From: Candidatus Omnitrophota bacterium
GTDB lineage: Bacteria > Omnitrophota > Gorgyraeia > B26-G9
Length of the DNA stretch: 64,000 bases
NCBI GenBank assembly: GCA_043814605.1
Contig: JBDRJV010000037.1
Coordinates: forward strand, 163,902 to 227,901
Direction of reading: 5' to 3'
Position 1 is the stretch's first letter; each line of letters starts with the position of its first letter. Below are positions 6,829 through 56,600 of the stretch, piece by piece. A model generated the notes under the pieces. That model was not told where the DNA came from. It saw nothing but the letters and a program-made list of their open reading frames with translations, and did not search any database. The position numbers were made by a program, and so were the translations under genes.

Positions 6829-8292
6829 GTGAAGATTACACTTATTTCTTTTGATGAAGAGTTATATTGTTTAGGGATAAGGATACTATCTTCCTGCTTG
6901 CGGCAAGCCGGGCATGAGGTACAATTAATTTTTTTACCGCCCATAACTAATCCTAAAGAGAAAAAGTTCATATTCAAATACACAAAAGATTTACTAAGAG
7001 CTCTTTTGCAACAATGTAAAGGCTCAGATATTCTGGGCATGTCTCTAATGACAAATCAGTTTATTTTAGCTATGGAGGTGACAAAATTTTTAAAAAATAA
7101 TCACATAACCGCACCAATTATCTGGGGGGGTATTGAGCCGACAGTTGAACCAGAAGAATGTATAAAAATAGCAGATATTGTTTGTATCGGTGAGGCAGAA
7201 GCGGCAATAGTAGAATTAGCTGGAAGGATAGAACAAGGAAAGAGTTTTTTAGATGTTAAAAATTTCTGGTTTAAAGATAAGGGTAATATTATCCGTAATG
7301 AAGTAAGACCACTTGAACAAAATTTAGATAAGCTGTCTTTTCCAGATTATAGTTGTGAAGATCATTTTCTGGGTTATGGAAATACTATGGAATCATTAAC
7401 AAAGGAAAAATTGATTAATTTTCCGGGAGAAAGATTTTCGGCAAAGAATGGCAAAATACGTTATCCGGTGATGACAAGCAGAGGTTGCCCTTTTGCCTGT
7501 ACATATTGTTGTAATAGTGTCTATCGGAAAATCTACCCAGGCCAAAAACTGTTAAGATGGAGAACTCAGGAACATGTCATTAAAGAACTGTGTATGGTCA
7601 GGGATAAACTTGCGCGATTAGACATGGTTTTTTTTGTGGATGATAATTTTACGGGCAGGGCAAATATTGATTTACAAGAATTTTGTTCAAACTATGCCAA
7701 GCATATCGGAGTGCCGTTTTTCGCTCAAGTAAGTCCGTTAACGGTTGACAAAGAAAAGCTGGAGATTTTGTTTAAATATGGATGCATCAAAATTACAATG
7801 GGTGTTGAAACGGGAAGCGAACGAGTTGCCGCGATGTATAACCGTAAACATTTTCATAAAGCTGTGCCGGGAGCGATTAAATTTATTGAAGAATATCGTC
7901 CGCAAATGAGTTTACCGCCGACATATCAGTTTATTATCGATAACCCTTTTGAATCACAAGAGGAAACATTAAAAACTCTTCACTTAGCAATAAGTTTGCC
8001 GCGCCCCTGGAATAATCCGATTTATTCTTTAATGCTTTTTCCCGGGACTGAGTTATATGACAAAGCAGTTCAAGCGCAGATGATCAGAGATAAGTATAAC
8101 CAAATTTATGCAAAAAACTGGGTAGAACAAAGTAACCCATACTTGCAATTATGGATTAAACTTTATCGAAATAACTTTCCCCGAATTTTCTTGCACTTTT
8201 TGATTATTCCTTTAATCGTTAAATTAGGGATGAGTAAACCGGTGAGTGCAGTTTTACGTATGAAGATTCTTAAAAAATGGATTTGTATTTAA
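6829..8292 (+). CDS. B12-binding radical SAM enzyme (class B rSAM)
   Basis: GTG start. N-terminal Rossmann-like B12-binding region. CxxxCxxC radical-SAM motif in SRGCPFACTYCCNS. Confidence 0.75.
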   Translation: MKITLISFDEELYCLGIRILSSCLRQAGHEVQLIFLPPITNPKEKKFIFKYTKDLLRALLQQCKGSDILGMSLMTNQFILAMEVTKFLKNNHITAPIIWGGIEPTVEPEECIKIADIVCIGEAEAAIVELAGRIEQGKSFLDVKNFWFKDKGNIIRNEVRPLEQNLDKLSFPDYSCEDHFLGYGNTMESLTKEKLINFPGERFSAKNGKIRYPVMTSRGCPFACTYCCNSVYRKIYPGQKLLRWRTQEHVIKELCMVRDKLARLDMVFFVDDNFTGRANIDLQEFCSNYAKHIGVPFFAQVSPLTVDKEKLEILFKYGCIKITMGVETGSERVAAMYNRKHFHKAVPGAIKFIEEYRPQMSLPPTYQFIIDNPFESQEETLKTLHLAISLPRPWNNPIYSLMLFPGTELYDKAVQAQMIRDKYNQIYAKNWVEQSNPYLQLWIKLYRNNFPRIFLHFLIIPLIVKLGMSKPVSAVLRMKILKKWICI

Positions 8293-14656: not shown

Positions 14657-14854
14657 ATGATGAATGGCAGGTTAAGTATTACTGAGGCAGCTGAGCAAAT
14701 TGAGGTTTCTCCTAAAACCATAATTCGCTGGGAAAAAGCTGGAAAAGTAAAAAAAGCCAAAAGAGATTGGCGAGGCTGGAGGTTTTATACTTACGAGGAT
14801 TTGCAGCAGCTAAAAAGTTTTAAGGCAACTGTTTATTACACACAAGACGCATAA
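14657..14854 (+). CDS. small helix-turn-helix DNA-binding protein (MerR/excisionase-like HTH)
   Basis: 65 aa. LSITEAAEQIEVSPKTIIRWEKAGKV is a typical MerR-type HTH. Good RBS (GGAGAG) upstream. Confidence 0.45.
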   Translation: MMNGRLSITEAAEQIEVSPKTIIRWEKAGKVKKAKRDWRGWRFYTYEDLQQLKSFKATVYYTQDA

Positions 14855-16959: not shown

Positions 16960-17746
16960 AGGAGTTAAAATGAAAAACTTTCTCAATTTTTTAAAAACAT
17001 TTCAGGATAAACAGTTAGACGCATTGAACATGCCCTCTTTACCCAAAGAATTTATATTAAAAAAAGTAAGGGATTCAAATATTAATCCGCATATCGTTTC
17101 TTATTTTGACCCAAAATCGCCGATTTCCGAACAATACCGCAGATTAAGAGAAAATATTAAGACTCTCAATAAACAAAACCAGATAAAAACCTTAGCAATT
17201 ACGAGCGCAATAAGCAACGAAGGTAAATCAACGTCTGTTTTAAATCTGGCGGTGACAATGACGAAAGATGTTGACTGTAAGAATGTTTTAGTGATTGATT
17301 GTGATCTGCGCCGGGGAACAATCGGTGATTCTTTAGATATAAAATCAAAAGTCGGCCTTTCAGATTATTTATTGTTGGGTGCGGATGTGGAAAATATTAT
17401 TTATAAAACTAAAATTGAAAAGCTTTCCATTATCCCGCGCGGGAAAATTGCCGAAGACCCCGCAGAATTATTAGCTTCGATTAAAATGCAAACATTGCTA
17501 GATAAAGTGAAGGGAAAATTTGATTTTATAATTTTAGATACATCTCCGGTTATTGCGGTAGCAGATAGCGGGATTGTCTGTGCGCTGGTTGATGGGGTAA
17601 TTATGGTAATTTGTGCCGGTAAAACCCAGCGCGGGATTGTAAAACATGCGGCAGAGCTTTTAGCTCAAGGCAAGGCAAATTTACTCGGATATATTTTAGC
17701 CCATATTGAATATCCGATTCCGGATTATATTTATCGGTACATTTAA
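16949..17746 (+). CDS. tyrosine-protein kinase (BY-kinase, CpsD/CapB-like cytoplasmic subunit)
   Basis: Walker A SNEGKSTS, Walker A' VIDCDLRRG, Walker B FIILDTSP. C-terminal Tyr cluster YIYRYI. Confidence 0.8.
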   Translation: MLDKGVKMKNFLNFLKTFQDKQLDALNMPSLPKEFILKKVRDSNINPHIVSYFDPKSPISEQYRRLRENIKTLNKQNQIKTLAITSAISNEGKSTSVLNLAVTMTKDVDCKNVLVIDCDLRRGTIGDSLDIKSKVGLSDYLLLGADVENIIYKTKIEKLSIIPRGKIAEDPAELLASIKMQTLLDKVKGKFDFIILDTSPVIAVADSGIVCALVDGVIMVICAGKTQRGIVKHAAELLAQGKANLLGYILAHIEYPIPDYIYRYI

Positions 17747-17799
17747 AAAGTCAATAGTTGACAGTAACTAGCTGATGGCTGATAGCGTTTAGAAAAAAA

Positions 17800-18545
17800 G
17801 TTATGAATTACGAGTTACGAGTGATAAATGAAAAGCGGAAAAGCAGATAAAAATTGAGAAACGATGGACGATCGCTTCGCTAGGATGAAGGACGAGTGAC
17901 AAGTGATGAGTGACGAGTGATAAAAAAAACTAAAACTAATTAACAATATAAAACAAGAAATTAATAATATTAAAATTCAATTATTAGGGGCAAATTTAAG
18001 GTGAATGTTAAAATGAGTAGTGATAATAATATTGTTGATAGAAGTTATAAATTTGCTTTGGAAATTATTAAATTAGTTAATTTTTTACCAAAAAGTACTA
18101 GTGGAACTGTAATTGGTAATCAGATAATGAAATCAGGGACATCCATAGGCGCTAATGTGGAAGAAGCACAAGGATCTGCGAGTAAAAAAGATTTTACTAA
18201 TAAAATGGCAATATCTAAAAAAGAAGCCAGAGAAACAAGGTATTGGCTTAGATTAATAAAGGATTCAGGAATTCTAAAAGAAAATGAGTTGGAGAATTTG
18301 CTTAAAGAAATTGATGAAATATTAAAAATTCTTACAGCTATTGTGAAAACATCAAAAGCTAACTTAAAATGTTGATTCTATTTGTTGTTTTTTGCTTTTA
18401 GGTTTTTAACTTATAACTTGTCAATCGTAATTTGTAATTAGTAAGGTAATTCATAATTAGTAATTTATAACTATCAGGTGTTTTTAACTTATAACTTGTA
18501 ACTCGTAATTTGTAACTATTAAGGTAATTCATAATTTTACAAAGG
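17800..18545 (+). mobile_element. Cassette copy A: conserved about 200-bp leader, four-helix-bundle (23S rRNA IVS / Avd-like) gene, and AT-rich tail with inverted-repeat ends
   Basis: The leader is near-identical to 20440-20654. The tail carries 'ttataacttgtaactcgtaatttgtaact' blocks. The 13-bp inverted repeat aattacgagttac / gtaactcgtaatt brackets the gene. Confidence 0.45.
18001..18375 (+). CDS. four-helix-bundle protein (23S rRNA-intervening-sequence protein family, Avd-like); the probable true start is the ATG at 18013
   Basis: 124 aa. About 90% identical to the copies at 20655 and 33009. Family-typical helices (...KSGTSIGANVEEAQG..S..F...ISKKEARETRYWLRL...). Confidence 0.8.
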   Translation: MNVKMSSDNNIVDRSYKFALEIIKLVNFLPKSTSGTVIGNQIMKSGTSIGANVEEAQGSASKKDFTNKMAISKKEARETRYWLRLIKDSGILKENELENLLKEIDEILKILTAIVKTSKANLKC

Positions 18546-18554
18546 TAACAAAAC

Positions 18555-20390
18555 ATGAGCGGAATTATCGGATATGCAGGGAAAAGAAATATCAGTCAGG
18601 TTTTATTAGATAGTCTGGAACGCTTGGAATACCGGGGTTATGATTCTGCGGGGATTGCAACTTTAAACGGAAAAGATTTATACCTTTGCCGGGAAACAGG
18701 GGATTTAAATAACCTAGTCAATACTATTGCTAATTACCCAGTTAAGGGAAAAATCGGGATTGGGCATACGCGTTGGGCAACTCACGGGGAACCGACAAAA
18801 TCTAATGCCCATCCACACACAGATTGTGAAGATAACATAATTGTAGTACATAACGGCATTATTGATAATTATTTATATTTAAAGAAAAAATTAGAAAAAA
18901 ATAAACATAAATTCAAATCAGAAACTGATTCTGAAATTATTGCGCATTTAATAGAAGATTATTTAAAACAAGGAGCGGCTAACCTGGAACAGGCTCTTAG
19001 CTGTACGCTGATGGACTTAAAAGGTTCTTATTCTATTGTGGCTATGTGTAAAAATGAACCGCGGAAATTGATTGCTGCACGCAACGGAAGCCCTTTAATG
19101 CTGGGAATCGGAGATAAAGAAAATTTTATTACTTCAGATGTTCCGGCAATTATCCCGTATACGCATAAGATTATTTTTTTAGAAGATTATCAAATGGCAG
19201 TTGTGGAAGATGAAAATTTTTACATTAAAAATCTCAACGGGGATATCCTGGATTACAATATTTCGAATTTAAATTGGGATGTAAACGCTGCACAAAAAAA
19301 TGGTTATGCGCATTTCATGTTAAAAGAAATTCATGAGCAGCCGATGATGGTGAAAAAAATACTCAGTGAAAAAATCGATTTTAAAAACCTGGATCTTAAG
19401 ATTGAAGAATTATCTAAAATAAAAAAACAAATTTCAAAAGTACATCAAATAATCATTCAAGCTTGCGGCAGCTCGTATCACGCGGGAATGGTGGGAGAAA
19501 AAATAATCGAATATTTTACAAATGTTCATACGGATGTGGAAATATCCAGCGAATTTAGATACAAACATTTTATTGCTGAACCGGGAAGTTTAATTATTTC
19601 CATTACTCAGTCAGGAGAAACTGCCGATACATTAATCGCTTTAAAAAAAGCCAGGCAAAGGGGATTGAATACTTTTTCTCTGTGTAATGTTGTTGGTTCA
19701 AGCATTGCGCGGGAATCAGATGCTGTATTTTGCATTCATGCCGGCCCGGAAGTGGGGGTTGCTTCAACTAAGGCTTATACAGCACAGCTTTTCAGTTTGT
19801 ATCTGATAAGTATATTTTTGGGTGTTTTAAAAAAAATAATTAAAAAAAATTTGAAGAATAATTTAATTAAAGAATTAACTCTTATTCCATCTTTTATGCA
19901 TAAAGTATTAGAGGAAGAAGAGAAAATTAAAGATTGTGCTAAAAAATATTATAACTTTAATAATTTCTTTTTTCTCGGGCGGGGGATTAATTATCCTAGT
20001 GCGCAAGAAGGGGCTTTAAAATTAAAAGAGATTGCCTACATTCATGCTTCTGCCTACGCAGCCGGAGAAATGAAGCACGGGCCGATTGCTTTAGTCGATC
20101 AGGATTTAGTTTGTGTTTGTATTGCTCCCCAAAGCATGACTTATGACAAAATGCTGGCAAATATCCAGGAAATAAAAGCCAGACGCGGAAAAGTTATTGC
20201 TATTGCTACAGCGGGAGATAAACAGATAAGCAAATATGTTGATGATGTGATTTATATCCCGGAGGTTCAGGAAATTTTTTCTCCTTTACTGGTGGCTTTG
20301 CCTTTACAATTACTGGCTTATTATATTGCTTTACACCGCGGCTGCAGTGTGGATAAGCCGAAGAATTTGGCGAAAAGTGTAACTGTTTGA
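18555..20390 (+). CDS. glmS: glutamine--fructose-6-phosphate aminotransferase (GlmS) homolog with Ser in place of the N-terminal catalytic Cys
   Basis: Full-length GlmS architecture: Ntn amidotransferase domain, two SIS domains, C-terminal ...KPKNLAKSVTV. The N-terminus reads M-S-G-I-I-G (codon AGC). Confidence 0.8.
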   Translation: MSGIIGYAGKRNISQVLLDSLERLEYRGYDSAGIATLNGKDLYLCRETGDLNNLVNTIANYPVKGKIGIGHTRWATHGEPTKSNAHPHTDCEDNIIVVHNGIIDNYLYLKKKLEKNKHKFKSETDSEIIAHLIEDYLKQGAANLEQALSCTLMDLKGSYSIVAMCKNEPRKLIAARNGSPLMLGIGDKENFITSDVPAIIPYTHKIIFLEDYQMAVVEDENFYIKNLNGDILDYNISNLNWDVNAAQKNGYAHFMLKEIHEQPMMVKKILSEKIDFKNLDLKIEELSKIKKQISKVHQIIIQACGSSYHAGMVGEKIIEYFTNVHTDVEISSEFRYKHFIAEPGSLIISITQSGETADTLIALKKARQRGLNTFSLCNVVGSSIARESDAVFCIHAGPEVGVASTKAYTAQLFSLYLISIFLGVLKKIIKKNLKNNLIKELTLIPSFMHKVLEEEEKIKDCAKKYYNFNNFFFLGRGINYPSAQEGALKLKEIAYIHASAYAAGEMKHGPIALVDQDLVCVCIAPQSMTYDKMLANIQEIKARRGKVIAIATAGDKQISKYVDDVIYIPEVQEIFSPLLVALPLQLLAYYIALHRGCSVDKPKNLAKSVTV

Positions 20391-20439
20391 TAAAACAGTT
20401 ATAAGTTACGAGTGATGAGTTATAAGTGATCAGTTATGA

Positions 20440-21135
20440 ATTACAAGGTACAAGTGATAAATGAAAAACGGAAAAGCAGATAGAAATTGAGAAACGATGG
20501 ACGATCGCCCGCCAGAAAGCGGCGAGGCTAGGACGAAGGACGAATGACGAGTGACAAGTGATGAGTGACGAGTGATAAAAAAACTAAAACTAATTAACAA
20601 TATAAAACAAGAAATTAAAAATATTAAAATTCAATTATTAGGGGCAAATTTAAGGTGAATGTTAAAATCAGTAGTGATAATAATATTGTTGATAGAAGTT
20701 ATAAATTTGCTTTAGAAATTATAAAATTAGTTAATTTTTTACCAAAAAGTACTAGTGGAACTGTAATTGGTAATCAGATAATTAAATCAGGGACATCCAT
20801 AGGCGCTAATGTGGAAGAAGCACAAGGAGCTGCGAGTAAAAAAGATTTTGCTAATAAAATGGCAATATCTAAAAAAGAAGCTAGAGAAACAAGGTATTGG
20901 CTCAGATTAATAAAGGATTCAGGGATATTAAAGGTTGCGCAGGTAAAAAGCTTACTTGATGAATGTAATTCAATCATTAATATTTTAACTGCTATTATTA
21001 AAACATCAAAAGCTAACTTAAAATGTTGATTCTATTTGTTGTTTTTTGCTTTTTGGTGTTTAACTTATAATTTGTAACTCGTAATTTGTAACTATTAAGG
21101 TAACTTATAATTTATAACTTGTAATTTTTAATTAG
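20440..21135 (+). mobile_element. Cassette copy B (leader + four-helix-bundle gene + tail)
   Basis: Leader and tail align with copy A. Differences are an extra 'ccgccagaaagcggcgagg' insertion in the leader and a single (not doubled) tail block. Confidence 0.45.
20655..21029 (+). CDS. four-helix-bundle protein (23S rRNA IVS protein family, Avd-like), copy B
   Basis: 124 aa. Near-identical to copy A over the first 95 residues, with a divergent last helix. Confidence 0.8.
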   Translation: MNVKISSDNNIVDRSYKFALEIIKLVNFLPKSTSGTVIGNQIIKSGTSIGANVEEAQGAASKKDFANKMAISKKEARETRYWLRLIKDSGILKVAQVKSLLDECNSIINILTAIIKTSKANLKC

Positions 21136-21159
21136 TCTAAAAAATAGGAGCTAAAACAA

Positions 21160-22482
21160 ATGAGTTTGTACAAAAAAATAAAAAGTGGTAAGGAGACAAT
21201 AGCCATAATTGGTCTCGGGTATGTAGGGTTTCCTTTAGCTGTAGAATTTGGCAAAATTATCAGAACTATCGGGTTTGATTTAAATAAAAAACGCGTAAAA
21301 ACCCTGCAGAACTTTCAGGATACTAATAATGAAACAACATCTGAGGAAATAAAATCGGCAAAGTTTCTGGAAGTAACTTCTGATGCGGAAAAAATAAAAG
21401 AAGCGAAATTCATAATCGTTGCCGTGCCGACACCGATCACAACAAATAATCAGCCGGATCTTTTTTGTCTAGAAAGTGCTTCGGAACTTGTGGGAAAAAA
21501 TCTGACTAAAGGCGCTATTGTCGTTTTTGAATCAACTGTATATCCCGGCGTAACTGAGGATGAGTGTGTGCCGATTTTAGAAAAATTTTCCGGACTTAAA
21601 TTTGGCACTGATTTTAAAGTGGGGTATTCTCCTGAGCGGATTAATCCCGGCGATAAGGAGCACAATATCACCAGTATCATAAAAGTAGTTTCCGGTTGTG
21701 ATCAGGAAACTTTAGAGACGGTTGCGGGTGTATACTCTTTAATTGTAAAAGCCGGTGTTTTTAAAGCAGAATCAATTAAAGTTGCTGAGGCGGCTAAAGT
21801 TATCGAGAATACACAGCGGGACTTAAACATTGCGTTAATGAATGAGCTGGCAATTATTTTCCATAAGATGAATATTGATACCCTAGCAGTTCTTAGGGCT
21901 GCGGCGACCAAGTGGAATTTTATTAATATGTATCCGGGTTTAGTTGGCGGGCATTGTATCGGCGTTGACCCATATTATTTAACATTTAAAGCTGAAGAAT
22001 TAGGTTATGACCCTCAGGTAATACTAGCCGGGCGCAGGATAAATGATAATATGGGCAAATATATTGCAGAACAGACAGTTAAGGCTCTGATAAAGGCTAA
22101 CAAAACTGTGAATGCAGCAAAAGTTTTAGTATTGGGAATTACATTTAAAGAAAATATATCAGACATCCGAAATTCCCGGGTTATTGATATCATAAATGAA
22201 TTAAAAGAGTATAATATCAAAATAAGCGTTTCTGATCCGTATGCTGATGTTCAGGCAGTAAGAAGAGAATACGGGATAGAATTAACCAAATATGCTGCAA
22301 AGATAAAAGCTGATGCGATGATTATTGCCGTTAATCATAATAAGTTTAAACAGGATTTAACCTTAACGGCACTTAAGAGACATCTGAGTGGTGAGGGCAC
22401 AAAAGGAGTATTAATTGATGTTAGGGGAATGTTTGATAAAAAAATATTTCAAGATTCTGATATTTTATACTGGAGGCTTTAA
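21160..22482 (+). CDS. UDP-N-acetyl-hexosamine 6-dehydrogenase (TviB/WbpA/WecC family nucleotide-sugar dehydrogenase)
   Basis: N-terminal NAD fold [14 protein letters not shown]. Catalytic GGHCIGVDP. 440 aa. Confidence 0.75.
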
Positions 22483-22802
22483 AAACAGCGAATAGTGATT
22501 ATAGAATCGAAGGACGAGAGACGAAGGACGAGAGACGAGAAAACAGAAAATATATAAAGTTACAAATTACAAGTGACGAATTACGAATTAAAAGCGAATA
22601 GAAAAAACAAAAAAAAGAAAAAACTAAAAAGCAAATTAGAGAGATGAAAAAGTGGATAAATTTTGTAAAAAATAGTTTTTTAGCGAACGAAGAGAGAGTT
22701 CGTCCTTCGTCCTAAAGAGCGGAGCGAATGGTCGTCTTTCGGACCTCGGTCAGAACTGGTAACGGGTAAACAGGCGAACTAACTACAAGGAGTAACAAAA
22801 TC

Positions 22803-27571: not shown

Positions 27572-28043
27572 ATAGCGGATGGCTCTTAGCTCATAGTATA
27601 AAGCATGGAACTGAGGGGCGAGTGACGAAAAAGCTTGAACATAAAGCAAAAAGAGATTAGTGTGGAGGATTTAGGATTTGGGAATTAGGATTTAGGATTT
27701 TGGAAAAGCAGATTTAGCTTGCAGCAATTGCAGCTTGAGGCATGTATCTTGCAGCCTGCAGTCTGAGGCTTGTGGCTTGTAGATTACGGCTTTTAACTAG
27801 TAACTTATAATTCATAACTAGCTTTAAATATTAATGTTAAGCGCTTGCATGAGCTGGAAATATATGGTATGCTTTACGACCTTTGAAACAAGGGGTTTGA
27901 GTTAAGGGGGATAATGGCTTAGCGATAAGGGAAGGGTTGGCGAGGAGCTAAAGAAACAAGGTTTTAGAGTAATAGTCGGCAGGAAAAGATATTTGGCGGT
28001 GGGCCTTGAAAAAAGACGCAAAATATGATATTATTTCTTTAGA

Positions 28044-28059
28044 TTGATAAAAATATCAA
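28044..28059. promoter_or_regulatory. palindrome TTGATAaaaaTATCAA immediately upstream of the AbiEi-like gene; candidate operator
   Basis: Perfect 6-bp arms with a 4-bp spacer, 20 bp before the GTG start at 28079. Confidence 0.35.
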
Positions 28060-28078
28060 TACAGAGAAATGAGGCGTT

Positions 28079-28720
28079 GTGAAATTTGATGATTTTATTA
28101 AAACTTATAGAGAAAGTGTTATTATTGATTCATCAACATTTAATTGGTTTTCGGATAAACCTCAAGATGTAAGGCGTCAGGTAAGGTACTGGGTTAAAAA
28201 AGGATATTTGATTTCCCTTAAGAAAGGGATTTATATCTTAAGTGACAATTACCGGAAAATTAATCTTTCTAGGGGATTTTTAGCAAATTTTCTTGTTTCT
28301 CCTTCGTATCTTAGTTTAGAATACGCTCTGGGATTTTACGGCCTTATCCCGGAAAAAGTAACAGTATATACCTCAATTACAACTAAAAAGACTGCTGCTT
28401 ATAAAAATTATTTGGGTGTATTTGAGTATCGTTCTCTAAAGAAGGACCTTTTTTTTGGGTTTACCAAGGTAGCGGAAAATAACCAGGAATTTTTTATTGC
28501 TCAGCCGGAAAAAGCAATTCTTGATTTTTTTTATTTTCGTAAGGAGATTAAAGGAAAAGCCGGGGAGTTTGAATCTTTGCGTTTTCAGAATCTAGAAACA
28601 TTGGATATCGCGAAATTACAGGAATTTAGTAAAAATTTCACTAAAAAAGTCAATAAAATCGCGCAAGAGTTCGTTAATTTTGTTGTTCAGGAAAACCGGG
28701 AATGGAAGACGCTTAAATGA
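28079..28720 (+). CDS. AbiEi-like antitoxin / transcriptional regulator (type IV TA)
   Basis: 213 aa. Overlaps its partner by 4 bp (ATGA). Partner is a clear AbiEii nucleotidyltransferase. The call rests mainly on this genomic context. Confidence 0.45.
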   Translation: MKFDDFIKTYRESVIIDSSTFNWFSDKPQDVRRQVRYWVKKGYLISLKKGIYILSDNYRKINLSRGFLANFLVSPSYLSLEYALGFYGLIPEKVTVYTSITTKKTAAYKNYLGVFEYRSLKKDLFFGFTKVAENNQEFFIAQPEKAILDFFYFRKEIKGKAGEFESLRFQNLETLDIAKLQEFSKNFTKKVNKIAQEFVNFVVQENREWKTLK

Positions 28721-29520
28721 AAGATTACATTAAGTCAATTATCGACAAAAAAGCAGGCTATGATGAAAACCTTAACAGGCTTCGGGAGTATATTCAAACA
28801 TATTTTTTATATATTAGCTACCGAAAAAAATATTATCAGAATATGGTGTTTACCGGAGGTACTGCTTTGAGATTTATCTATGGAATCAGGAGATTTTCAG
28901 AAGATCTGAATTTTAGTTTATCTATGAGTAATCGCGGATTTGATTTTCTTGATATGCTTAAAGATGTTGAACAGGAGTTTAAACTGGCAGGGTACAGCAT
29001 TGAGGTAAAGCCCAGAATAAAAGGGCAGGTCTATAGCGCTCAATTAAAGTTTCCTCAACTTTTATTTGAAACAGGTTTAAGTATGGTGGAAGATGAAAAA
29101 TTAATGATTAAAGTTGAGATCGACTCTAATCCTCCTGAAGGAGGATTAGAGTCCCACACTTTATATAACAAAACATTTATGTTCCATATGGTACATTATG
29201 ACCTTGCGTCGTTATTTGCGGGTAAATTACACGCGCTTTTACGCCGCAAATATACTAAAGGCCGGGATTGGTATGACTTAATATGGTATTTGTCAAAATT
29301 TAAAAATATAGAGCCTAATTATCTCATGCTTAACAACGCGCTTGCGCAGACATCGAAAGTTTATTCGCGTATTTCAAAAGAAAACTGGAAATCTGAGATA
29401 TTGAAAATTGCTTGCGAGTTGGAGTGGCGTAAAGTTAGAAATGATGTAGGTAGATTTTTAGAGGATCATAATGAAGTAAGTTTGCTTGCGATCGAGACTT
29501 TTAAAAGCATGCTTGGCTGA
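28717..29520 (+). CDS. AbiEii/AbiGii-family nucleotidyltransferase toxin (DUF1814)
   Basis: N-terminal FTGGTALRFIYGIRRFSEDLNF matches the DUF1814 GGTAL...RFSED(I/L)D(F/L) signature. 267 aa. Confidence 0.7.
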   Translation: MKDYIKSIIDKKAGYDENLNRLREYIQTYFLYISYRKKYYQNMVFTGGTALRFIYGIRRFSEDLNFSLSMSNRGFDFLDMLKDVEQEFKLAGYSIEVKPRIKGQVYSAQLKFPQLLFETGLSMVEDEKLMIKVEIDSNPPEGGLESHTLYNKTFMFHMVHYDLASLFAGKLHALLRRKYTKGRDWYDLIWYLSKFKNIEPNYLMLNNALAQTSKVYSRISKENWKSEILKIACELEWRKVRNDVGRFLEDHNEVSLLAIETFKSMLG

Positions 29521-29765
29521 TAGCTGATAGAAAAACAGCGAGTAGCGGCTAGCGAATAGAAAAACTGAAGGACGATGGATGACCGCCCACCAGAAAGCGG
29601 CGAGGCTAGGATGAAGGACGAAAAAGCTAAATAGCTTATAGGAGTTAGGAAAAACAAAAGCTAAATTCTAAAACTCGAGCTAAGAGATAACTTAACTGGT
29701 AGCAGGGAATGGCTAACTGGTTCACTGGCAACCGGCGAACGGATATATAAAAGGTTATAAAATTT

Positions 29766-31256: not shown

Positions 31257-31457
31257 GTCAAAAAGGTTAGCGGTTACGATGCCCGTATCGGTTCAAAAAG
31301 GCAACGGTAACGGCTTGAAGCAGAAAAGATAGAAGCAAAAAGCAGATTTAAATAGCTCGTAAGCATGGAAAGCATGCTTAGGTTGTGGGAAAAGGTAAGC
31401 GGTAACGCAGCCCCTACCACAATGCTTGGCGGGCAGGCGTATCGGTTAAAGAGGTAA

Positions 31458-31781
31458 ATGAAAGAAATAGTTTCTAAAATGCCGGACTGTGAAAAATTTG
31501 ATTTGACAGATTAATTGCGACGTTCAAGTAAAGCGATTCCTTGTTTAATTGCTGAAGGATACGCAAAGAAGCATCAGAAGGCTGGATTTCAGAAATACAT
31601 AGACGATGCTATGGCAGAGAGCAATGAGACAGGAGTTAGTCTAAGCCAAGCACGTGATATTTATGGTAATTATGTTGATTTAAAACTTTGCGAAAAATTG
31701 ATTGATGAATATGACAAAATAGGCAGGCAACTATACAATCTTGGAGTTGCTTGGAATGATTTTAAGAGCCGTAACCGATAA
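31458..31781 (+). pseudogene. degenerate four-helix-bundle (IVS/Avd-like) gene: N-terminally shortened, with an in-frame TAA at a conserved Gln position
   Basis: MPDCEKFDLTD*LRRSSKAIPCLIAEGYA aligns to the family consensus [27 protein letters not shown], with the stop at the Q position. The first helix is missing. Confidence 0.6.
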
Positions 31782-31841
31782 ACGTTAGACGAAACGGGCA
31801 TCTTAACCGTCAAACGACAGACGTTTTCAAAGGAGCAAATT

Positions 31842-32837: not shown

Positions 32838-33390
32838 TTATGAATTACGAATTACGAGTGACAAGTGACGAACGATAAATTATAAGTTCTAAAATCTAAA
32901 AGCTAAAAATAAAGATAAAACACAAAAATTATAAAAATAAATTAAAAAAGTAAAAATCAAAGAAATAAAAAGTTAATTATTAATTGTGAATTTAAGGTTA
33001 AGGCTGAAATGGCTAGTGAAAATAATATTGTTGATAGAAGCTATAAGTTTGCTTTAGAAATTATAAAACTAGTTAATTTGTTGCCAAAGAGTACTAGTGG
33101 TGCTGTTATAGGTAATCAGATCATGAAATCAGGGACATCTATTGGCGCAAATGTTGAGGAAGCACAAGGAGCATCAAGCAAAAAAGATTTTACTAATAAA
33201 ATGTCAATATCTAAAAAGGAAGCAAGAGAAACAAAATATTGGCTTAGATTAATTAAAGATTCAGAAATTTTAAATATTACACAAGTAAAAAGCTTACTTA
33301 ATGAATGTGATTCGCTGGTAAATATACTAACAGCTATTGTAAAAACATCCAAGATGAACTCATAATTCTTAATTTATAATTTGTAATTGC
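32838..33390 (+). mobile_element. Cassette copy C (shorter leader + four-helix-bundle gene + short tail)
   Basis: The leader starts 'ttatgaattacgaattacgagtgacaagtgacga', which relates to the copy A/B leaders. The tail is 'taatttataatttgtaatt'. Confidence 0.4.
33009..33365 (+). CDS. four-helix-bundle protein (23S rRNA IVS protein family, Avd-like), copy C
   Basis: 118 aa. About 85% identical to copies A/B. Confidence 0.8.
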   Translation: MASENNIVDRSYKFALEIIKLVNLLPKSTSGAVIGNQIMKSGTSIGANVEEAQGASSKKDFTNKMSISKKEARETKYWLRLIKDSEILNITQVKSLLNECDSLVNILTAIVKTSKMNS

Positions 33391-33402
33391 TTGGGAGGCG
33401 CG

Positions 33403-34538: not shown

Positions 34539-35762
34539 ATGAAATATATTTCAAGATGGATAGAAACTAAAATTAAAGCAGTGCTTGAGTCTCATCCGGT
34601 GATTATTCTAACAGGCCCTAGACAGGTAGGGAAAAGCACATTATTGGAATACGCGGATTTTTTAACAGATTGGCGCTATATCACATTGGATGATCCTGAC
34701 GCATTAGAGCAGGCAAAAGAAGATCCGAAAGGTTTATTATGGGAAGACATCCCCACAATTATTGATGAGGCGCAGCGGTGTCCTCAGCTTCTATTAACTG
34801 TTAAATATCTTGTTGATAAGTCAAGAGGGGCCAGAAAGTTTATTCTTTCCGGTTCCGGGAATATCTCATTAAGACAGACGCCCAGAGAAACATTGGCAGG
34901 CAGAGCAAAGTATTTACATTTAACGGGATTTGCTTATAGAGAATTAAAAGGCCTTTCTGCAAGTGATGGCATTCTTGAAAGAGTCTGGACTGGGCAGGAA
35001 ATTGAAGCCAATAATATTAAATCCTTATTTGCTTTAGAGCCTACTGTCTGGAGAGGATGTTTGCCGGCGGTTGTGTTGGCAAAAAATGATACTATTGCTG
35101 TTGAACGGCTAAGCGGCTATATCGATACTTACATTCAACGCGATATTCAGGATTTAGTTAAAGTGCGGTACCCAGAACATTTTCGCCGTTTAATGGAGTC
35201 TCTCTCTCAGGCGACGGGCTGGGAATCCGTGCAGGAAGAACTGTCAAAAAGCTGCGGTGAAACGCGTACGAATGTGAGCCGGTATATTAGCTTGCTTAAA
35301 GATACAAATCTTTTATACGATTTGAAAGGATACGTTTATAAGGGGGAGAGATCTTATAAACAGTCAAAATATTATTGGTTTGATACAGGATCGGCATGTT
35401 TTTTGGCTGGTATTCATTCCCCTGCTGAACTGAAAAAGCCTCATGTTAAAGGCCGGTATTTTGAAAACTTTATTTTACAACAGATTTTGTCATGGGCATC
35501 CTTACAGCTTATTACGCCGGAAATATTTTACTGGAAACCGAAAACCCAGGATATTGAAGTTGATTTTGTCATTGCAGCCGCTGGTAAAGCTATTGGCATA
35601 GAGGTTAAATCATCCGAGAAGCTCACCTTTGGTGATACAAAGCAGATGCGTAAATTTCTCAAATTTCATCCGAAGATTTTAAAGGGGATTATTGTTTACG
35701 CGGGAAATAAGGTTTATCCGGTGGCATCGAATATTCTGGCTGTTCCATGGTTAGCACTTTGA
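34539..35762 (+). CDS. AAA-family ATPase with C-terminal DUF4143-like domain
   Basis: P-loop ILTGPRQVGKST. About 400 aa. The architecture matches the AAA_14/DUF4143 ATP-binding protein family. Confidence 0.6.
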   Translation: MKYISRWIETKIKAVLESHPVIILTGPRQVGKSTLLEYADFLTDWRYITLDDPDALEQAKEDPKGLLWEDIPTIIDEAQRCPQLLLTVKYLVDKSRGARKFILSGSGNISLRQTPRETLAGRAKYLHLTGFAYRELKGLSASDGILERVWTGQEIEANNIKSLFALEPTVWRGCLPAVVLAKNDTIAVERLSGYIDTYIQRDIQDLVKVRYPEHFRRLMESLSQATGWESVQEELSKSCGETRTNVSRYISLLKDTNLLYDLKGYVYKGERSYKQSKYYWFDTGSACFLAGIHSPAELKKPHVKGRYFENFILQQILSWASLQLITPEIFYWKPKTQDIEVDFVIAAAGKAIGIEVKSSEKLTFGDTKQMRKFLKFHPKILKGIIVYAGNKVYPVASNILAVPWLAL

Positions 35763-35925
35763 TTAGCGATAAGGGACGGGTTGTTTGGGAGCTAAAGAAA
35801 CAAGGTTATTGTGGTGAGTTGAATTAGTTTGTCAATAGTTCAGACCTGGCCCCGCTACTTACTTACATTTAGTTTTTGCTAAACGCTAGCCGCTGAACGC
35901 GATACGCTAATGAAGGAGAGTACCC

Positions 35926-40159: not shown

Positions 40160-41331
40160 AAATTAAAATCTGTCATTTTTTAAATCGGCTTGATGTAGGA
40201 GGTATGGAGAACGGGGTTATTAATATTTGCAATCGTATTGACAGAAAAAAATTTAAGCCTCATATTTGCTGCATAAAGGGAAAAGGAAATATGTCACTGC
40301 GGCTTAAGTCAGATGTAAATGTGCATACTTTTAATTTCCCAGAAGGCAAATCAATTTTTCGTCCATTAACAATGATAAATTTTTTTAAAAAAGAAAGATT
40401 TGATATCGTGCATACACATGCTTGGGGAGCCTGTTCCTTAGACGGAATAATCGGCGCTCGTTTTGCAGGAGTGCCTGTAGTAATAAACGGAGAACACGGT
40501 GTTTTTTTTCTAAAAAAATACCAGATTGCTTCACAAAGAATTTTAGCCAAGTTATGTGATAAAACATTATCAGTCTCTCTTTCTTTAAAAAAAGAAATAA
40601 AGTTAAACTTAGGCATCCCGGGAAATAAAATTTGTGTAATTGCTAATGGGGTAGATACCAATTATTTTAATGGTCAATATGATATTTCGGGTGTAAATGA
40701 ATATATTCTTAAAAGAAATATTAACTTAAATAATGATTCTTTTTTAATCGCTTGTGTAGGAAGCATTAAGCCAAGTAAAAATCAAAAGATTTTAATTGAT
40801 GCAATTATTAAATTAAAAAATAAAAACTTAATTGTTTTATTTGTCGGAGATGGTCCGGACAGAAAGATACTTGAAAGCTATATTGACCAGAATAAATTAA
40901 ACGAAAATATTATTTTTTTGGGGCAAAGAGATGATGTGCATAAAATTTATTCTTTTGCTGATTTGCTGGTTTCAAGTTCCATTGGTTCACATGAAGGATT
41001 GTCTAATGTTATGTTAGAAGCAATGGCATCCGGCATTCCGGTTATTTCTACGGAATCTATAGGAGCTCGGGAACTGGTTAGAGAAGGGGAAACCGGGTTT
41101 TTAATTAAATCAGAAGATGTTGGTAGTTTAGCGGAAAAAATTGAAAGATTTTATTCTGATCGTGGCTTATTGAAAAAAATGGGTGATAGTGCGCAAAAAT
41201 TTATTAAAGAAAATTTTTCTATAGACAGAATGATTTCTGAATATGAAAAACTTTATTTGGATTTATATAACAAAAAAATGAATACAGGCCGCAAGCCGCA
41301 AGCTACAGGCTGCAAAGAACAAGGGGAATAA
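40156..41331 (+). CDS. family 4 (GT-B) glycosyltransferase
   Basis: E-x7-E region [23 protein letters not shown]. Gly-rich N-terminal block. The C-terminal about 17 aa are encoded by a 'ccgcaagccgcaagctacaggctgcaaag' word-repeat motif. Confidence 0.75.
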
Positions 41332-41347
41332 GGTCGGGTTACGAATA

Positions 41348-41719
41348 ATGAAGAGTTATAAAGATTTGGAAATTTATAAATTATCCCATGATTTAGCAGT
41401 AAAGCTACATGAGATGACGCTGCAAAATTTACCTAAATTTGAGATATATGAACAAGGGAGTCAAATTAGAAAGTCATCTAAATCAATAGTTGCTACTATT
41501 GTTGAAGGTTTTGGGAGAAAATCATATCAACAGTAATTCATACGTTATTTGACCTATGCGTTAGCTTCCTGTGATGAAACAAAAGAGCATTTAGAATTAT
41601 TATTTGATACAAAATCTTTAAAAGATGAAATTAAATATAAAAATTGGATGCAGGAGTTGGAGAAGCTAGGCAGAAAACTATATAATTTTCGTAAAACAGT
41701 AGTTAAAGATCTAAAATAA
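41348..41719 (+). pseudogene. four-helix-bundle (IVS/Avd-like) gene, full length but interrupted by an in-frame TAA at 41534-41536
   Basis: The upstream part ...[16 protein letters not shown] and the same-frame downstream part FIRYLTYALASCDETKEHLELL... together reconstruct the whole family protein (about 123 codons). The downstream flank carries the cassette tail motif 'ggtaatttgtaactcgtaacttataact'. Confidence 0.6.
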
Positions 41720-41837
41720 TCTTGTATTCTGTAGCTTGCAGCTTGTAACTTGTAGCATTAGCAGTGTTTATCCAAAGATTTTTTTTGCTGCTAATTGGTA
41801 ATTTGTAACTCGTAACTTATAACTTTTTTGAGGAATT

Positions 41838-50299: not shown

Positions 50300-50417
50300 T
50301 TATAAATTATGAATTACGAATTATGAATGAAAAAAATTAAAACTCAAAGAATGATGGTAAAATAATTTTAACTTGTAACTTTTAACTCATAACTAATAAC
50401 TTTACTGAAGGTAACAC
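50300..50417 (+). repeat. cargo-less cassette remnant: the leader-type and tail-type flank motifs of the four-helix-bundle cassette are fused without the gene
   Basis: 'ttatgaattacgaattatgaatgaaaaaaattaaaactcaaag' (leader-like) is followed by 'ttttaacttgtaacttttaactcataactaataact' (tail-like). Confidence 0.4.
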
Positions 50418-53670: not shown

Positions 53671-56600
53671 ATGAATCTATACAGAAAGGCCATGAAACAC
53701 ATAATTTTAAACTACGTATTAATTCCACTCTTAATAATCTTTAATTTACTTTTTGTCCAAATTGTTCAGGCGGCAACATATTATATGCCGGATAATTTTG
53801 CCAATTTACAAGCAGCATTCTCCGGCATGTCCGGCGGAGATACTTTAATTATCCGGAACGGGACTTATACCGGAGATGCGAACAGGATTACGACGAGTCA
53901 ACGCCCGCCTCAAGGCAATGCCGGAGCCTGGACAATAATTAAAGCGGAAAATGACGGCCAGGTTATTTTTGATGGGCAAAATGTCAGGAATATATTTGAC
54001 CATCAGCCTTCTTCAAGCAATAAGTATTGGCAGTTTGAAGGGCTGATCTGGTGCCGGACTCCGGATAGTAATGTTACTTTGACATATTCTCGTTATGTAA
54101 AATTTCTACGCTGCGGGGCTTTTGGCTGCGGTGCGGGAAACCGGATAAATTTCAATATCGGCCGGCAGAACGAGTATATTTTACTTGAGAACTGCTATGC
54201 CTGGGGCAGCGGCCGGTATAAGTTTTCCGCTTATCAAAGCCGGAGGATAGTTTTCCGGCAATGCGTGGGCCGCATGGATGATGTTAATGCTTTGGGTGAG
54301 CCGATCGCGATTTTTGCCATATATTCGGTGGATGATGTGGAGGTACAGAATTGTATTGCTATAGATTCTAATCAGACTTCGTCCTGGAGTAATGTCGGCC
54401 AATGCAGCGGATCTTTTTTTGTCCCTTCCACAGATATGGATGCTAACCGGGTAAATTTCACGCAATGCATTGCGTTAAACAATCAAATTGCCGGATTGTG
54501 TACGACAGGAAATAGTTCTTACGCGGCTAATGATGTGACGTTCCGGGATTGTGTAGTTTGGAATGTCGGATCATTTGATAACAACGCAATCAACTTATTA
54601 AGAGGTTATAATTCACAACTGCTCAATTGCACCTTTGGCCTGGCTAATGACCCGATAGATACGCATTATTCTTATGATGCTATTGATTTTGATAATAACG
54701 GTGTGTGTAAGAATTCCATAATTTATAATCACAGAGGCGCTGGGGTATTTAATGATTTTGAGATTGAAGATTACAATTGTTTATATGCTAACGACAACAA
54801 CAATAATTCCGGTTTGCATGATATAACTAATGTGAACCCAATTTATCATGCGTCAAATAATATTAGCGGAGCGTTGAGATACATTGTGCGGATTGAAAAT
54901 AATTCTAATTTGAGTACACGCGGCGAGAACAACGCAATTATTGGAGCGAATTGTTTAAAGACTATTGGCGCGCCAGGGTCGTTATGGGGCGAATATGGGT
55001 ATAATACCGTACAATCTACGAATTTATGGCCGTTTCCGTATGAGAGTGTAATTCGTACGGCAATGAGGGCATATAATTCCGGCGGGGTTAGCGGCAACCG
55101 GGGTTTTTGTGTAGATGGCCAGACACTAACCAAATATATTTGGGAATATTTAGGTAATCCGATGCCAACGGAACTTTATCAGGCAAGTCCGCTTACGATT
55201 AATACTACGGCTCTATCTGGTGGTGTAGTTAATACGAATTATCAGCAAACGCTTTCGGCTACCGGAGGAACTGCGCCGTATACATGGTCGATTGTTTCCG
55301 GCAGTATGCCTAATGGCTTAGTGTTGAATGCTTCAACCGGCCAGATCACCGGTATCCCGACACAGGAAAATACATTTAATTTTACGATCCAGGTGCGCGA
55401 TAGTGTAATGGCTACGGATACCCAAAGCCTTTCGATTGCAGTTATTCGGCAGGATACAACTGCTCCACTGATTTCCAGCGTAAATATTTCTAATATAACT
55501 CAATCATCGGCGATTATTTCCTGGGATACAGATGAGCCGGCAAACTCCCAGATACAGTACGGAGTAACTACATCCTATGGTTCTCAGACGGCACTGAATA
55601 CAAGCATGGTGACAGCGCATTCAGTATTAATCGCTAATCTTACTTCTAATACCGGGTATCATTTTAGGATTTTAAGCGCGGATAACTCGAATAATTTAAG
55701 GATTTCCGGGGATTATACTTTTACCACTAATTCAGTGGTTGTTACGGATAATGTTGCTCCACTGATTTCCAGCGTAAATATTTCTAATATAACTCAGTCA
55801 TCGGCGACTGTTTCCTGGAATACAGATGAGCCGGCAAACTCCCAGATACAGTACGGAGTAACTACATCCTATGGTTATCAGACGGCAATGAATACAAGCA
55901 TGGTTACTTCGCATTCTGTTTCGATTGCAAATCTTAATTCTGATACCGGATATCATTTTAGGATTTTAAGCGCGGATAACTCGAATAATTTAAGGATTTC
56001 CGGGGATTATACTTTTACCACTAATCAGGAAGTTATAAACGATAATATTGCTCCGGCAAATATTCAAGATTTAACAGTAGTTTTAACTACAAGTAATTCT
56101 GTAACACTTAGCTGGACTGCACCTGGTGATGATGCTAACAGCGGTACTGCGGCCAGTTATGATATCCGGTATTCAACGATTGGTAGTAGTTGGTATATCT
56201 GGTATTTTTCGTCTTTTGTAAACGGAGAACCCATACCGGCTGTTGCCGGAACAAGACAGACGATGACAATAGCCGGATTATCTTCGGGAAGGACATATTA
56301 TTTTGTGATGAAAACCCAGGATGAAGCGTCAAATGTCTCTGGGTATTCAAATGTTGTGAGCGGGCAAACGCAAAATATAAATGTTGCTGATTCTCAAGCT
56401 CCCTATGTTGAAGCTTGTTTGCCAATATTAAATGGTAGTAATATTCCGCGTGATACCAATATCCATTTTTGTATAAAAGATAATATTTCCGGAGTTGATC
56501 GAAGTACAATAGATTTATCTGTGCAGGGTATAGATATAATCACTAACGGAGGTATTCGCACATATATCGATGCTAATGGTCAGACTCAAGATTATAATGT

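Follow-up and report, generated by a model that had tools for sequence, protein, structure and literature searches.

Cassettes with a four-helix-bundle gene between complementary heptamer arrays in the operon spacers of an Omnitrophota polysaccharide locus

Cassette anatomy in the polysaccharide locus

We analysed a 64-kb stretch of the genome of a Candidatus Omnitrophota bacterium (contig JBDRJV010000037.1; hereafter the window), which carries a polysaccharide export and biosynthesis locus and, in the spacers between its genes, five copies of a small cassette built around a gene for a four-helix-bundle (4HB) protein. The window has a GC content of 35%, and its real genes are all on the + strand. 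They include a small helix-turn-helix (HTH) gene, a Wza-like Poly_export gene, genes for a GNVR protein and an AAA_31 kinase, glmS, two UDP-glucose dehydrogenase (UGDH) genes, and genes for several epimerases, three AsnB-type amidotransferases, glycosyltransferases, Wzy, and Wzx. The GlmS of the window is 100% identical to the Omnitrophota GlmS P0121. All five 4HB copies are on the + strand as well; three are intact and two are pseudogenes. An earlier note on this DNA had described two cassettes of about 0.7 kb that bracket glmS, with a third intact and two degenerate copies nearby, all on the + strand, and the open reading frames (ORFs) and coordinates confirmed this description:

18555-20390, + strand: glmS, the host gene between cassettes 1 and 2, with SIS and GATase domains
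18013-18375, + strand: cassette 1 4HB gene, 120 aa from an ATG; an upstream GTG at 18001 gives 124 aa
20655-21029, + strand: cassette 2 4HB gene, 124 aa from a GTG start; the ATG of copy 1 is ATC here
32838-33390, + strand: cassette 3, with an intact 118-aa gene (33009-33365), a 5' heptamer arm (32838-32889), and a 25-nt tail
31257-31823, + strand: cassette 4, with an N-terminally truncated 4HB pseudogene (31458-31781) and an in-frame TAA at 31512
41276-41760, + strand: cassette 5, with a full-length 4HB pseudogene (41348-41719) and an in-frame TAA at 41534

The cassette 1 protein is 100% identical to a 120-aa NCBI Omnitrophota protein, and the cassette 2 protein is the NCBI protein P0002; in all, three 4HB proteins of the window have exact matches at NCBI. 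Copies 4 and 5 are members of other 4HB subfamilies, with identities of about 30%. Each cassette lies precisely between genes and is co-directional with the operon, and the ribosome-binding sites downstream are left intact. Rfam and tRNA scans of the window detected no known RNA family, no tRNA, and no large-subunit rRNA.

The leader and tail words quoted in the earlier note, both of which are present in cassette 1, were found to be complementary arrays of tandem heptamers: AGTTATG AATTACG AGTTACG AGTGATA and GACGAGT GACAAGT GATGAGT GACGAGT in the leader and, complementary to them, TAACTTG TAACTCG TAATTTG TAACT in the tail. Self-match at a lag of 7 was 0.42 in the window spacers, compared with about 30% at other lags and 0.27 in coding sequence. 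Nested long-range stems of 32-41 bp are possible around the ORF in four of the five copies. The arms and the leader modules located between the arms and the ORF are as follows:

17798-17838 and 18478-18518, + strand: copy 1 outer arms, 35 bp, -38.5 kcal/mol, also recovered in an inverted-repeat search and in the minimum-free-energy fold
17878-17930 and 18386-18443, + strand: copy 1 inner arms, 40 bp, -31.0 kcal/mol
18386-18443, + strand: copy 1 first tail block, which is the inner 3' arm
18478-18537, + strand: copy 1 second tail block TTATAACTTGTAACTCGTAATTTGTAACTATTAAGGTAATTCATAATT, containing the outer 3' arm
20394-20431 and 21098-21137, + strand: copy 2 outer arms, 34 bp, -28.1 kcal/mol
20432-20480 and 21044-21094, + strand: copy 2 middle arms, 41 bp, -35.1 kcal/mol
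21040-21137, + strand: copy 2 3' arms (tail block and extra heptamers)
31257-31313 and 31770-31823, + strand: copy 4 arms, 32 bp, -41.6 kcal/mol
41276-41319 and 41720-41760, + strand: copy 5 arms, 35 bp, -44.3 kcal/mol
32861-32889 and 33370-33394, + strand: copy 3 arms, 21 bp, -14.5 kcal/mol
17837-17897, + strand: cassette 1 leader modules, GGAAAAGCAGAT and a GACGATCGC..GAAGGACGA hairpin module, shortened in copy 1
20484-20585, + strand: cassette 2 leader, with a GC hairpin module between GAAGGACGA-type words and then the inner heptamer run

Against dinucleotide shuffles, the whole-cassette folds of copies 1, 2, 4, and 5 gave z values of -4.4, -3.9, -3.0, and -2.4. A 13-bp inverted repeat, which the earlier note had placed around each copy, is present in cassette 1 but has three mismatches in the copy 2 leader, and the real arms are 34-41 bp long; complementary arms enclose copies 1, 2, 4, and 5, but copy 3 has no significant stem. 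In copies 4 and 5 the arm sequences are entirely different from those of the other subfamily, and complementarity is kept. In copy 1 the outer 5' arm (17798-17838) consists of AGTTATG AATTACG AGTTACG AGTGATA and the inner 5' arm (17878-17930) of GACGAGT GACAAGT GATGAGT GACGAGT GATAAAA, and the tail block occurs at 18402-18459, 18480-18537, and 21056-21113. The leader hairpin module of cassette 1 aligns with copy 2 and with the leader of L001, a locus in another genome described below. GGAAAAGCAGAT has four exact sites in spacers (0.6 expected), and GAAGGACGA has seven sites, all in spacers (0.2 expected).

Parts of the cassettes also occur without a 4HB gene:

29562-29622, + strand: free-standing GC hairpin module of the leader, downstream of AbiEii, 61 nt, 87% identical to 20484-20544
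22483-22802, + strand: ORF-less spacer between the UGDH and epimerase genes, with leader-like heptamer runs (GAAGGACGA three times, and AGTTACAAATTACAAGTGACGAATTACGAATT)

The latter spacer is complementary to the tail of cassette 2 (score 69), and its own fold is not significant (z -1.6). ORF-less heptamer spacers were considered as self-contained "empty" hairpins, a notion that is mostly unsupported, with fold z values of -2 to +1.4. The sole ORF-less spacer with a significant fold, and on the minus strand only (z -3.1; plus strand +0.1), is 50300-50417, which has an AATTATG/AATTACG run on its 5' side and a TAACTNN run on its 3' side.

Two further observations concern the arms. The 3' arms of cassettes are complementary to the next 5' arms downstream (scores 49-71), as in the pairs 18376-18554 with 20391-20654 and 21030-21159 with both 22483-22802 and 32838-33008. 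As a result, glmS and the UGDH gene are themselves bracketed by arm pairs, here with the C-rich arm before the G-rich one, and these pairs could compete in folding. The upstream glycosyltransferase ORF contains, in its final 55 nt or so (41276-41331), the 5' arm of cassette 5 (GCCGCAA GCCGCAA GCTACAG GCTGCAA), so that this host protein appears to end in a tail encoded by a heptamer array.

Copies 1 and 2, which are 2.65 kb apart, are 95-100% identical over most of their length and 97% identical over the 300 nt of 17947-18246 and 20601-20900, with the third copy at 83%. Their description as near-identical in the earlier note holds for this stretch but not for their proteins, which share 86% identity, nor for the patch 18279-18319, in which copies 1 and 2 agree at only 19 of 40 positions, whereas copies 2 and 3 agree at 32 of 40. 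This mosaic patch, in which copy 2 resembles copy 3, indicates that the copies have exchanged sequence. The homology of copies 1 and 2 begins exactly at the outer arm (17799; 20432) and stops at the tail block (18537; 21113), and no host-gene sequence is included in the duplicated unit. Homology bounded in this way by the arms indicates duplication of a cassette, not of a chromosomal segment.

All five copies pass the family models PF05635 (95.5, 92.0, 90.0, 37.7, and 90.7 bits for copies 1-5; cutoff 33.8) and TIGR02436 (111, 109, 107, 36, and 90 bits; cutoff 24), in agreement with the family named in the earlier note. More than 6,000 relatives at E <= 1e-20 were among the matches listed in a word-filtered search. 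A solved relative of the window proteins (118-124 aa) is the pentamer-type structure PDB 2RLD, with five chains (E 1.8e-23 for the cassette 1 protein, residues 7-121). The conserved family motif RxxxSxxxNxxE (Lin 2006, in the form quoted in PMC3936711) is matched by KSGTSIGANVEE in copies 1-3, where K replaces R, and by RAADSVALNIAE in the syntenic locus L088 (see below). The models for Avd, the accessory protein of diversity-generating retroelements (DGRs), gave scores below their cutoffs, with 16.8-24.6 bits for the equivalog NF033474 (cutoff 80) and 22.7 bits for PF22296 (bAvd; cutoff 40). One 4HB relative gave a weak match to phrog_3206, an Avd PHROG, and this was the single PHROG match; PADLOC assigned the 4HB proteins to no defence family, and a search for viral carriers found none. 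The 4HB proteins are relatives of Avd, not Avd, and the window holds no reverse transcriptase (RT) among its + strand ORFs scanned with Pfam; both points agree with the earlier note.

Orthologous sites and relatives across phyla

The closest relatives of the window proteins (73-86% protein identity) were found in other Omnitrophota-like metagenome-assembled genomes (MAGs), in which the same leader and tail architecture occurs between different neighbours:

L001: 4HB gene between genes for the exosortase EpsH and a DUF3485 protein
L002 and L082-84: 4HB gene between GT2 and AbiEi-AbiEii
L003 and L085: 4HB gene between hypC and hypD-hypE

L001 has the same leader as copy 1 and a tail identical at 38 of 40 positions, although the two proteins are only 79% identical, which points to constraint on the tail sequence itself. 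The flanks are therefore shared by a copy in a different operon of another genome, as the earlier note had supposed; in a single metagenome scan with the tail word, only L001 was recovered. The leader in L003 is unusual in that approximately 13 tandem GCATAAAG octamers (30-135, hyp operon) separate two heptamer runs upstream of the 4HB gene, so that an array of period 8 is set inside an otherwise period-7 leader.

Three loci are syntenic with the window around glmS, and their GlmS proteins are 76-77% identical to that of the window. The occupancy of their spacers differs:

Window: copy 1 (subfamily A) upstream of glmS; copy 2 (subfamily A) between glmS and the UGDH gene; 320-nt ORF-less spacer between the UGDH and epimerase genes
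L087: empty spacer of 19 nt upstream of glmS; 65 nt with a few retained heptamers between glmS and the UGDH gene; other spacers of 21-22 nt; zero cassettes
L086: 196-nt spacer without a cassette upstream of glmS; 4HB gene 26-28% identical to the window copies between glmS and the UGDH gene
L086, other sites: 4HB pseudogene between the UGDH and epimerase genes; another copy after the epimerase gene
L088/L089: 4HB gene 22% identical to copy 1 upstream of glmS; ORF-less remnant of a subfamily-A leader between glmS and the UGDH gene

In the L086 pseudogene (7124-7532), a TAG comes directly after MAFKFERLKV, and the gene call resumes from a GTG further inside; the L082 orthologue, at 79% identity, is intact. 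Together with the two window copies, this makes three 4HB pseudogenes. Spacers that are occupied in the window are thus empty (19-65 nt) in related Omnitrophota. The states of the syntenic sites and the three pseudogenes amount to the turnover expected of a selfish cassette and, read from sequence comparison, indicate that cassettes have repeatedly been gained, replaced, degraded, and lost at fixed positions between genes. These findings support the suggestion of the earlier note that a small selfish or mobile cassette has colonised the locus.

The architecture was then compared in the 80 best homologous loci from GTDB representative genomes, whose phyla and groups include Planctomycetota, Acidobacteriota, Verrucomicrobiota, Bacteroidota, Cyanobacteria, Desulfobacterota, Chloroflexota, Deferribacteres, and Burkholderiales, among others. 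Complementarity was measured between the upstream and downstream flanks of the 4HB gene, each 250 nt long. In 77 loci it scored 52, compared with 32 for mismatched pairs (p = 4e-12), and 48 compared with 27 when windows shifted within the same locus served as the control (p = 6e-13); a score of 45 was reached by 58% of the 4HB flanks and by 2.8% of the shifted windows. The inverted-repeat ends of the earlier note are conserved in this sense, with arms complementary across subfamilies and approximately 80 loci. The 4HB flanks had a period-7 signal of 0.37-0.39; coding windows reached 0.26 and the remaining spacers of these loci 0.29. Heptamer runs of at least three units occurred in 63% of the upstream and 76% of the downstream flanks, compared with 2% of controls. 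Their most frequent length is 4-5 units, and they end approximately 29 nt before the gene match and start approximately 22 nt after it. Many loci have upstream and downstream units that are exact reverse complements of each other, as with (TTGAGTG)n ... (CACTCAA)n in a MAG from Burkholderiales.

The 5' arm is rich in G and poor in C (G>C in 64 loci versus 8) and contains GAAT rather than ATTC (36 loci versus 4) and TGA rather than TCA (37 versus 4). Since an inverted repeat reads alike on both strands, this bias describes a topology with the G-rich arm first, not an orientation relative to the ORF, and a "polarity relative to the gene" was dropped for the same reason. One rationale for this topology may be that a C-rich arm, if transcribed first, would sit unpaired for approximately 0.5 kb. 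Neighbouring genes are on the same strand in 82% of cases upstream and 76% downstream, with median gaps of 73 and 57 nt, and Rfam detected no rRNA in the 80 loci. Among plasmids, matches were dominated by Nostocales, the group from which the STRR heptamers discussed below were defined. In Nostoc punctiforme pNPUN01, the 4HB gene lies between (GTCGGAG)n and (CTCCGAC)n (45 bp), and here (L090 62-2737) it adjoins Tn7-like tnsA and xisH/xisI. In Anabaena cylindrica pANACY.01 (L091 1027-3118), a 4HB gene with GTAAAAA heptamer runs lies between cas2 and cas1; the GTAAAAA unit is also found in an Omnitrophota spacer (L086 3305-3500).

Other modules of the locus

The small HTH gene at 14657-14854 encodes a 65-aa MerR/excisionase-like protein directly upstream of the Wza-like gene and is conserved there in L086. 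Two accessory modules lie within the polysaccharide operon: a type IV toxin-antitoxin pair, AbiEi/AbiEii (28079-29520), and a DUF4143 AAA ATPase assigned by PADLOC to the candidate system PDC-S01 (34539-35762). Upstream of AbiEi is an AT-rich segment (28030-28078) that contains the palindrome TTGATAAAAATATCAA and has a nearly identical counterpart upstream of the AbiEi homologue in L002, a homologue that follows a 4HB cassette. A 45-nt repeat, 89% identical, lies upstream of AbiEi (27919-27963) and just downstream of the DUF4143 ATPase gene (35763-35807), and GGAAAAGCAGATTTAGCTTGCAGC is common to the spacers upstream of the two modules. These spacers share leader motifs with the cassettes. The AbiE and PDC-S01 modules were considered as the cargo of an armed cassette and rejected, as their flanking spacers are not complementary (scores of 25 and 23, equal to background). 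Towards the end of the window, three paralogous large proteins of surface type (53671-58707, 58896-60956, and 61342 to the end) carry fn3, He_PIG, and purple-acid-phosphatase N domains; their N-terminal and internal segments are 68-93% identical, and a 294-nt unit is tandemly repeated at 55452-56039.

Comparison with known elements and interpretation

The closest known kind of element is the ORF-bearing intervening sequence (IVS) of rRNA, of which the cassettes are a variant in operon spacers. The IVS of Coxiella burnetii 23S rRNA is 428-444 nt long, its terminal complementary sequences form a 28-bp stem with an S23p (PF05635) ORF in the loop, two or three tandem GACAGAT heptamers lie on the 5' side, and RNase III cleaves at the first repeat (PMC4990558). 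The cassettes resemble the IVSs of Coxiella and Leptospira in their PF05635 ORF within the loop of a terminal-complement stem, in their size (approximately 0.4-0.75 kb), sporadic distribution, and ORF decay, and in residing inside a transcription unit without destroying it; the tandem heptamers 5' of the Coxiella ORF correspond to GACGAGT GACAAGT GATGAGT GACGAGT in the window. They differ in lying between protein genes of operons, not in helix 9, 25, or 45 of 23S rRNA, and in having two or three nested arm pairs instead of one 28-bp stem. As far as sequence can tell, the cassettes hold every listed part of the Coxiella IVS except the location in rRNA. The heptamer arrays, this IVS design, and the generality across phyla had all been missed in the earlier reading.

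A second likeness is to the short tandemly repeated repetitive (STRR) elements of cyanobacteria, tandem 7-bp intergenic units that can form hairpins and were proposed to stabilise transcripts (PMC2670836). STRR have also been reported inside RNase P RNA (Vioque 1997). Such units flank the 4HB genes of Nostoc and Anabaena. STRR have been described as free-standing repeats of heterocystous cyanobacteria, whereas the window arrays bracket a gene, their host is an Omnitrophota bacterium, their units are of the AGTTACG and GACGAGT types rather than the STRR1-3 consensus, and the association extends across many phyla. Our literature search, with incomplete coverage, found STRR tied to no protein gene, and no report beyond the Coxiella IVS that links heptamer or STRR arrays to 4HB genes. 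Avd shares a homologous small four-helix-bundle fold with the cassette proteins and is a pentamer that binds an RNA stem-loop (bioRxiv 10.1101/2023.10.23.563531).

The cassettes also invite comparison with mobile repeats. In systems of repetitive extragenic palindromes (REP) and their doublets (REPIN) with the transposase RAYT, and in Correia and enterobacterial repetitive intergenic consensus (ERIC) elements, repeats are likewise scattered in spacers, and a gene may be flanked by inverted short-repeat copies. Miniature inverted-repeat transposable elements (MITEs) of the Correia and ERIC type that are processed by RNase III are co-transcribed with operons and form hairpins. In contrast to REPIN-RAYT and MITEs, the 4HB gene enclosed by the cassette is not a transposase, the heptamer arrays vary between copies, and no target duplication was seen. 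Of the features of MITEs or insertion sequences, inverted arms are present; no target duplication was seen at the boundaries of copies 1 and 2 and no transposase was found in the window, and a trans-acting enzyme encoded elsewhere is possible. An integron cassette differs in that the window has no integrase and that the arms bracket the gene rather than follow it.

We consider it fairly likely that the cassettes are selfish insertions of the IVS type that live in transcribed operon spacers, with stems that place the approximately 120-aa 4HB gene in a loop. All copies are co-directional with short gaps, which suggests that the operon transcript reads through them. The read-through transcript would fold the arms into duplexes of 32-41 bp, and RNase III, by extrapolation from rRNA IVSs, would cut these duplexes, remove the cassette RNA, and separate the flanking cistrons. 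Such removal would explain how insertion between essential biosynthetic genes is tolerated, and by analogy the cassettes are probably tolerated through RNase III cutting of the stem. The pentameric protein would bind nucleic acid, possibly the heptamer arrays themselves, as Avd binds RNA, and spread may use the arrays for recombination or gene conversion, or may depend on a trans-acting activity.

Several observations weigh against this account. Copy 3 is intact yet lacks a 3' arm (25-nt tail; z +0.4), and spacers that lack a 4HB gene also carry heptamer runs, mostly without significant structure. The cassette 1 leader contains a tentative promoter-like site (17940-17968, + strand, TTAACA-17-AATAAT), which is the best + strand consensus match in 17600-21300, where 25 sites compare with 16.5 expected in such AT-rich DNA; this site might yield transcripts without the 5' arm. 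No recombinase, transposase, integrase, or RT was detected with Pfam among the + strand ORFs of the 64-kb window, and visual inspection of the copy 1 and copy 2 boundaries revealed no target-site duplication. The 80 loci are each related to a single query and lack phylogenetic independence. Family-wide, G:U-type mismatches do not exceed A:C-type mismatches (44 versus 40), and the scores of the + and - strands are equal (52.1 versus 52.05). Selection on pairing in the sense RNA is therefore not visible, and an origin at the DNA level is equally compatible; the complementarity could have arisen or persisted there through template switching, gene conversion, or a recombinase. Only subfamily A, to which copies 1 and 2 belong, showed a weak sense-strand wobble excess among non-independent copies (G:T 49 versus A:C 30, p = 0.04), which counts in favour of the account. 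Wobble asymmetry as proof of an RNA-level stem was accordingly abandoned, being absent family-wide and weak in subfamily A.

The absence of wobble asymmetry and the equal strand scores speak for another explanation, to which we give a minor but appreciable probability, that the cassette is a non-autonomous, MITE- or REPIN-like DNA element whose arms act as hairpin or cruciform ends for a trans-acting recombinase or for replication and repair, with the RNA stem as a by-product. The topology with the G-rich arm first, which by symmetry holds on both strands, also suits such an element, as do the tail of L001, kept more strongly (38/40) than the ORF between genomes, the turnover of cassettes at fixed sites, and the heptamer-only remnants in otherwise empty sites. 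It has to contend with the lack of a transposase, integrase, or RT in 64 kb and of a visible target-site duplication, with arms that differ between subfamilies in one genome, which is awkward for a single sequence-specific recombinase, and with the RNA-level precedent of the rRNA IVS and the weak sense-strand G:U excess in subfamily A. The co-directional copies placed precisely between genes, with intact downstream ribosome-binding sites, same-strand neighbours (82% and 76%), and short median gaps (73 and 57 nt), could also be expected if the cassette were a host regulatory module, in which the stems are STRR-like elements of mRNA processing or stability and the host uses the 4HB protein to regulate polysaccharide genes through RNA binding. 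STRR hairpins have been proposed as transcript stabilisers (PMC2670836), and several copies are in exopolysaccharide loci. We nevertheless regard a host module as improbable: the syntenic L087 does without any cassette (spacers of 19-65 nt), two of the five window copies and one L086 copy are pseudogenes, unrelated subfamilies occupy the same site, and the same cassette is found in operons for hydrogenase maturation and exosortase, as well as between cas2 and cas1.

Two simpler explanations fare much worse. The proximity (2.65 kb) and 97% identity over 300 nt of copies 1 and 2 might reflect nothing more than the local duplication of a segment with a small hypothetical gene and its AT-rich, low-complexity flanks; we judge this very improbable, because the duplicated unit ends at the arms without host sequence, leader and tail are found again in a different operon of another genome, and arm complementarity and period 7 are highly non-random in the window and approximately 80 loci. 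Still harder to credit is a DGR remnant with the 4HB genes as Avd accessory genes, for which the sub-threshold Avd similarity (NF033474, 17-25 bits; PF22296, 22.7) and the phrog_3206 match of one relative could be cited. The Avd equivalog cutoff is 80 bits, Pfam detected no RT, and no template/variable (TR/VR) repeat pair was found among the direct repeats of the window, indicating that the cassettes are not part of a DGR; this candidate was rejected.

Beyond the preferred reading of the window cassettes as IVS-type insertions, a broader proposal is offered tentatively, as one that we hold possible rather than likely. PF05635 genes and polar complementary heptamer arrays may together form one pan-bacterial class of selfish elements that reside in transcribed spacers and RNA hairpin loops, of which rRNA IVSs would be the rare rRNA-resident members, and STRR arrays and ORF-less heptamer spacers the footprints. 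The pentamer would then recognise an array of approximately 4-5 heptamers (core GAAT/GAGT) on RNA or DNA and aid maintenance or spread.

In practical terms, the cassettes split operons in annotation and can mislead the prediction of operons and regulons in polysaccharide loci. Their fixed architecture, a G-rich heptamer array, a gene, and the complementary array, provides a simple genomic signature that is conserved across phyla, with turnover at operon spacers, and it predicts that RNase III cuts within the arms and that the pentamer binds heptamer arrays. The PF05635/TIGR02436 proteins are among the most widespread small bacterial proteins of unknown function, and the anatomy of the cassettes joins three separate puzzles: the origin of rRNA IVSs, the meaning of STRR, and the role of Avd relatives outside DGRs.

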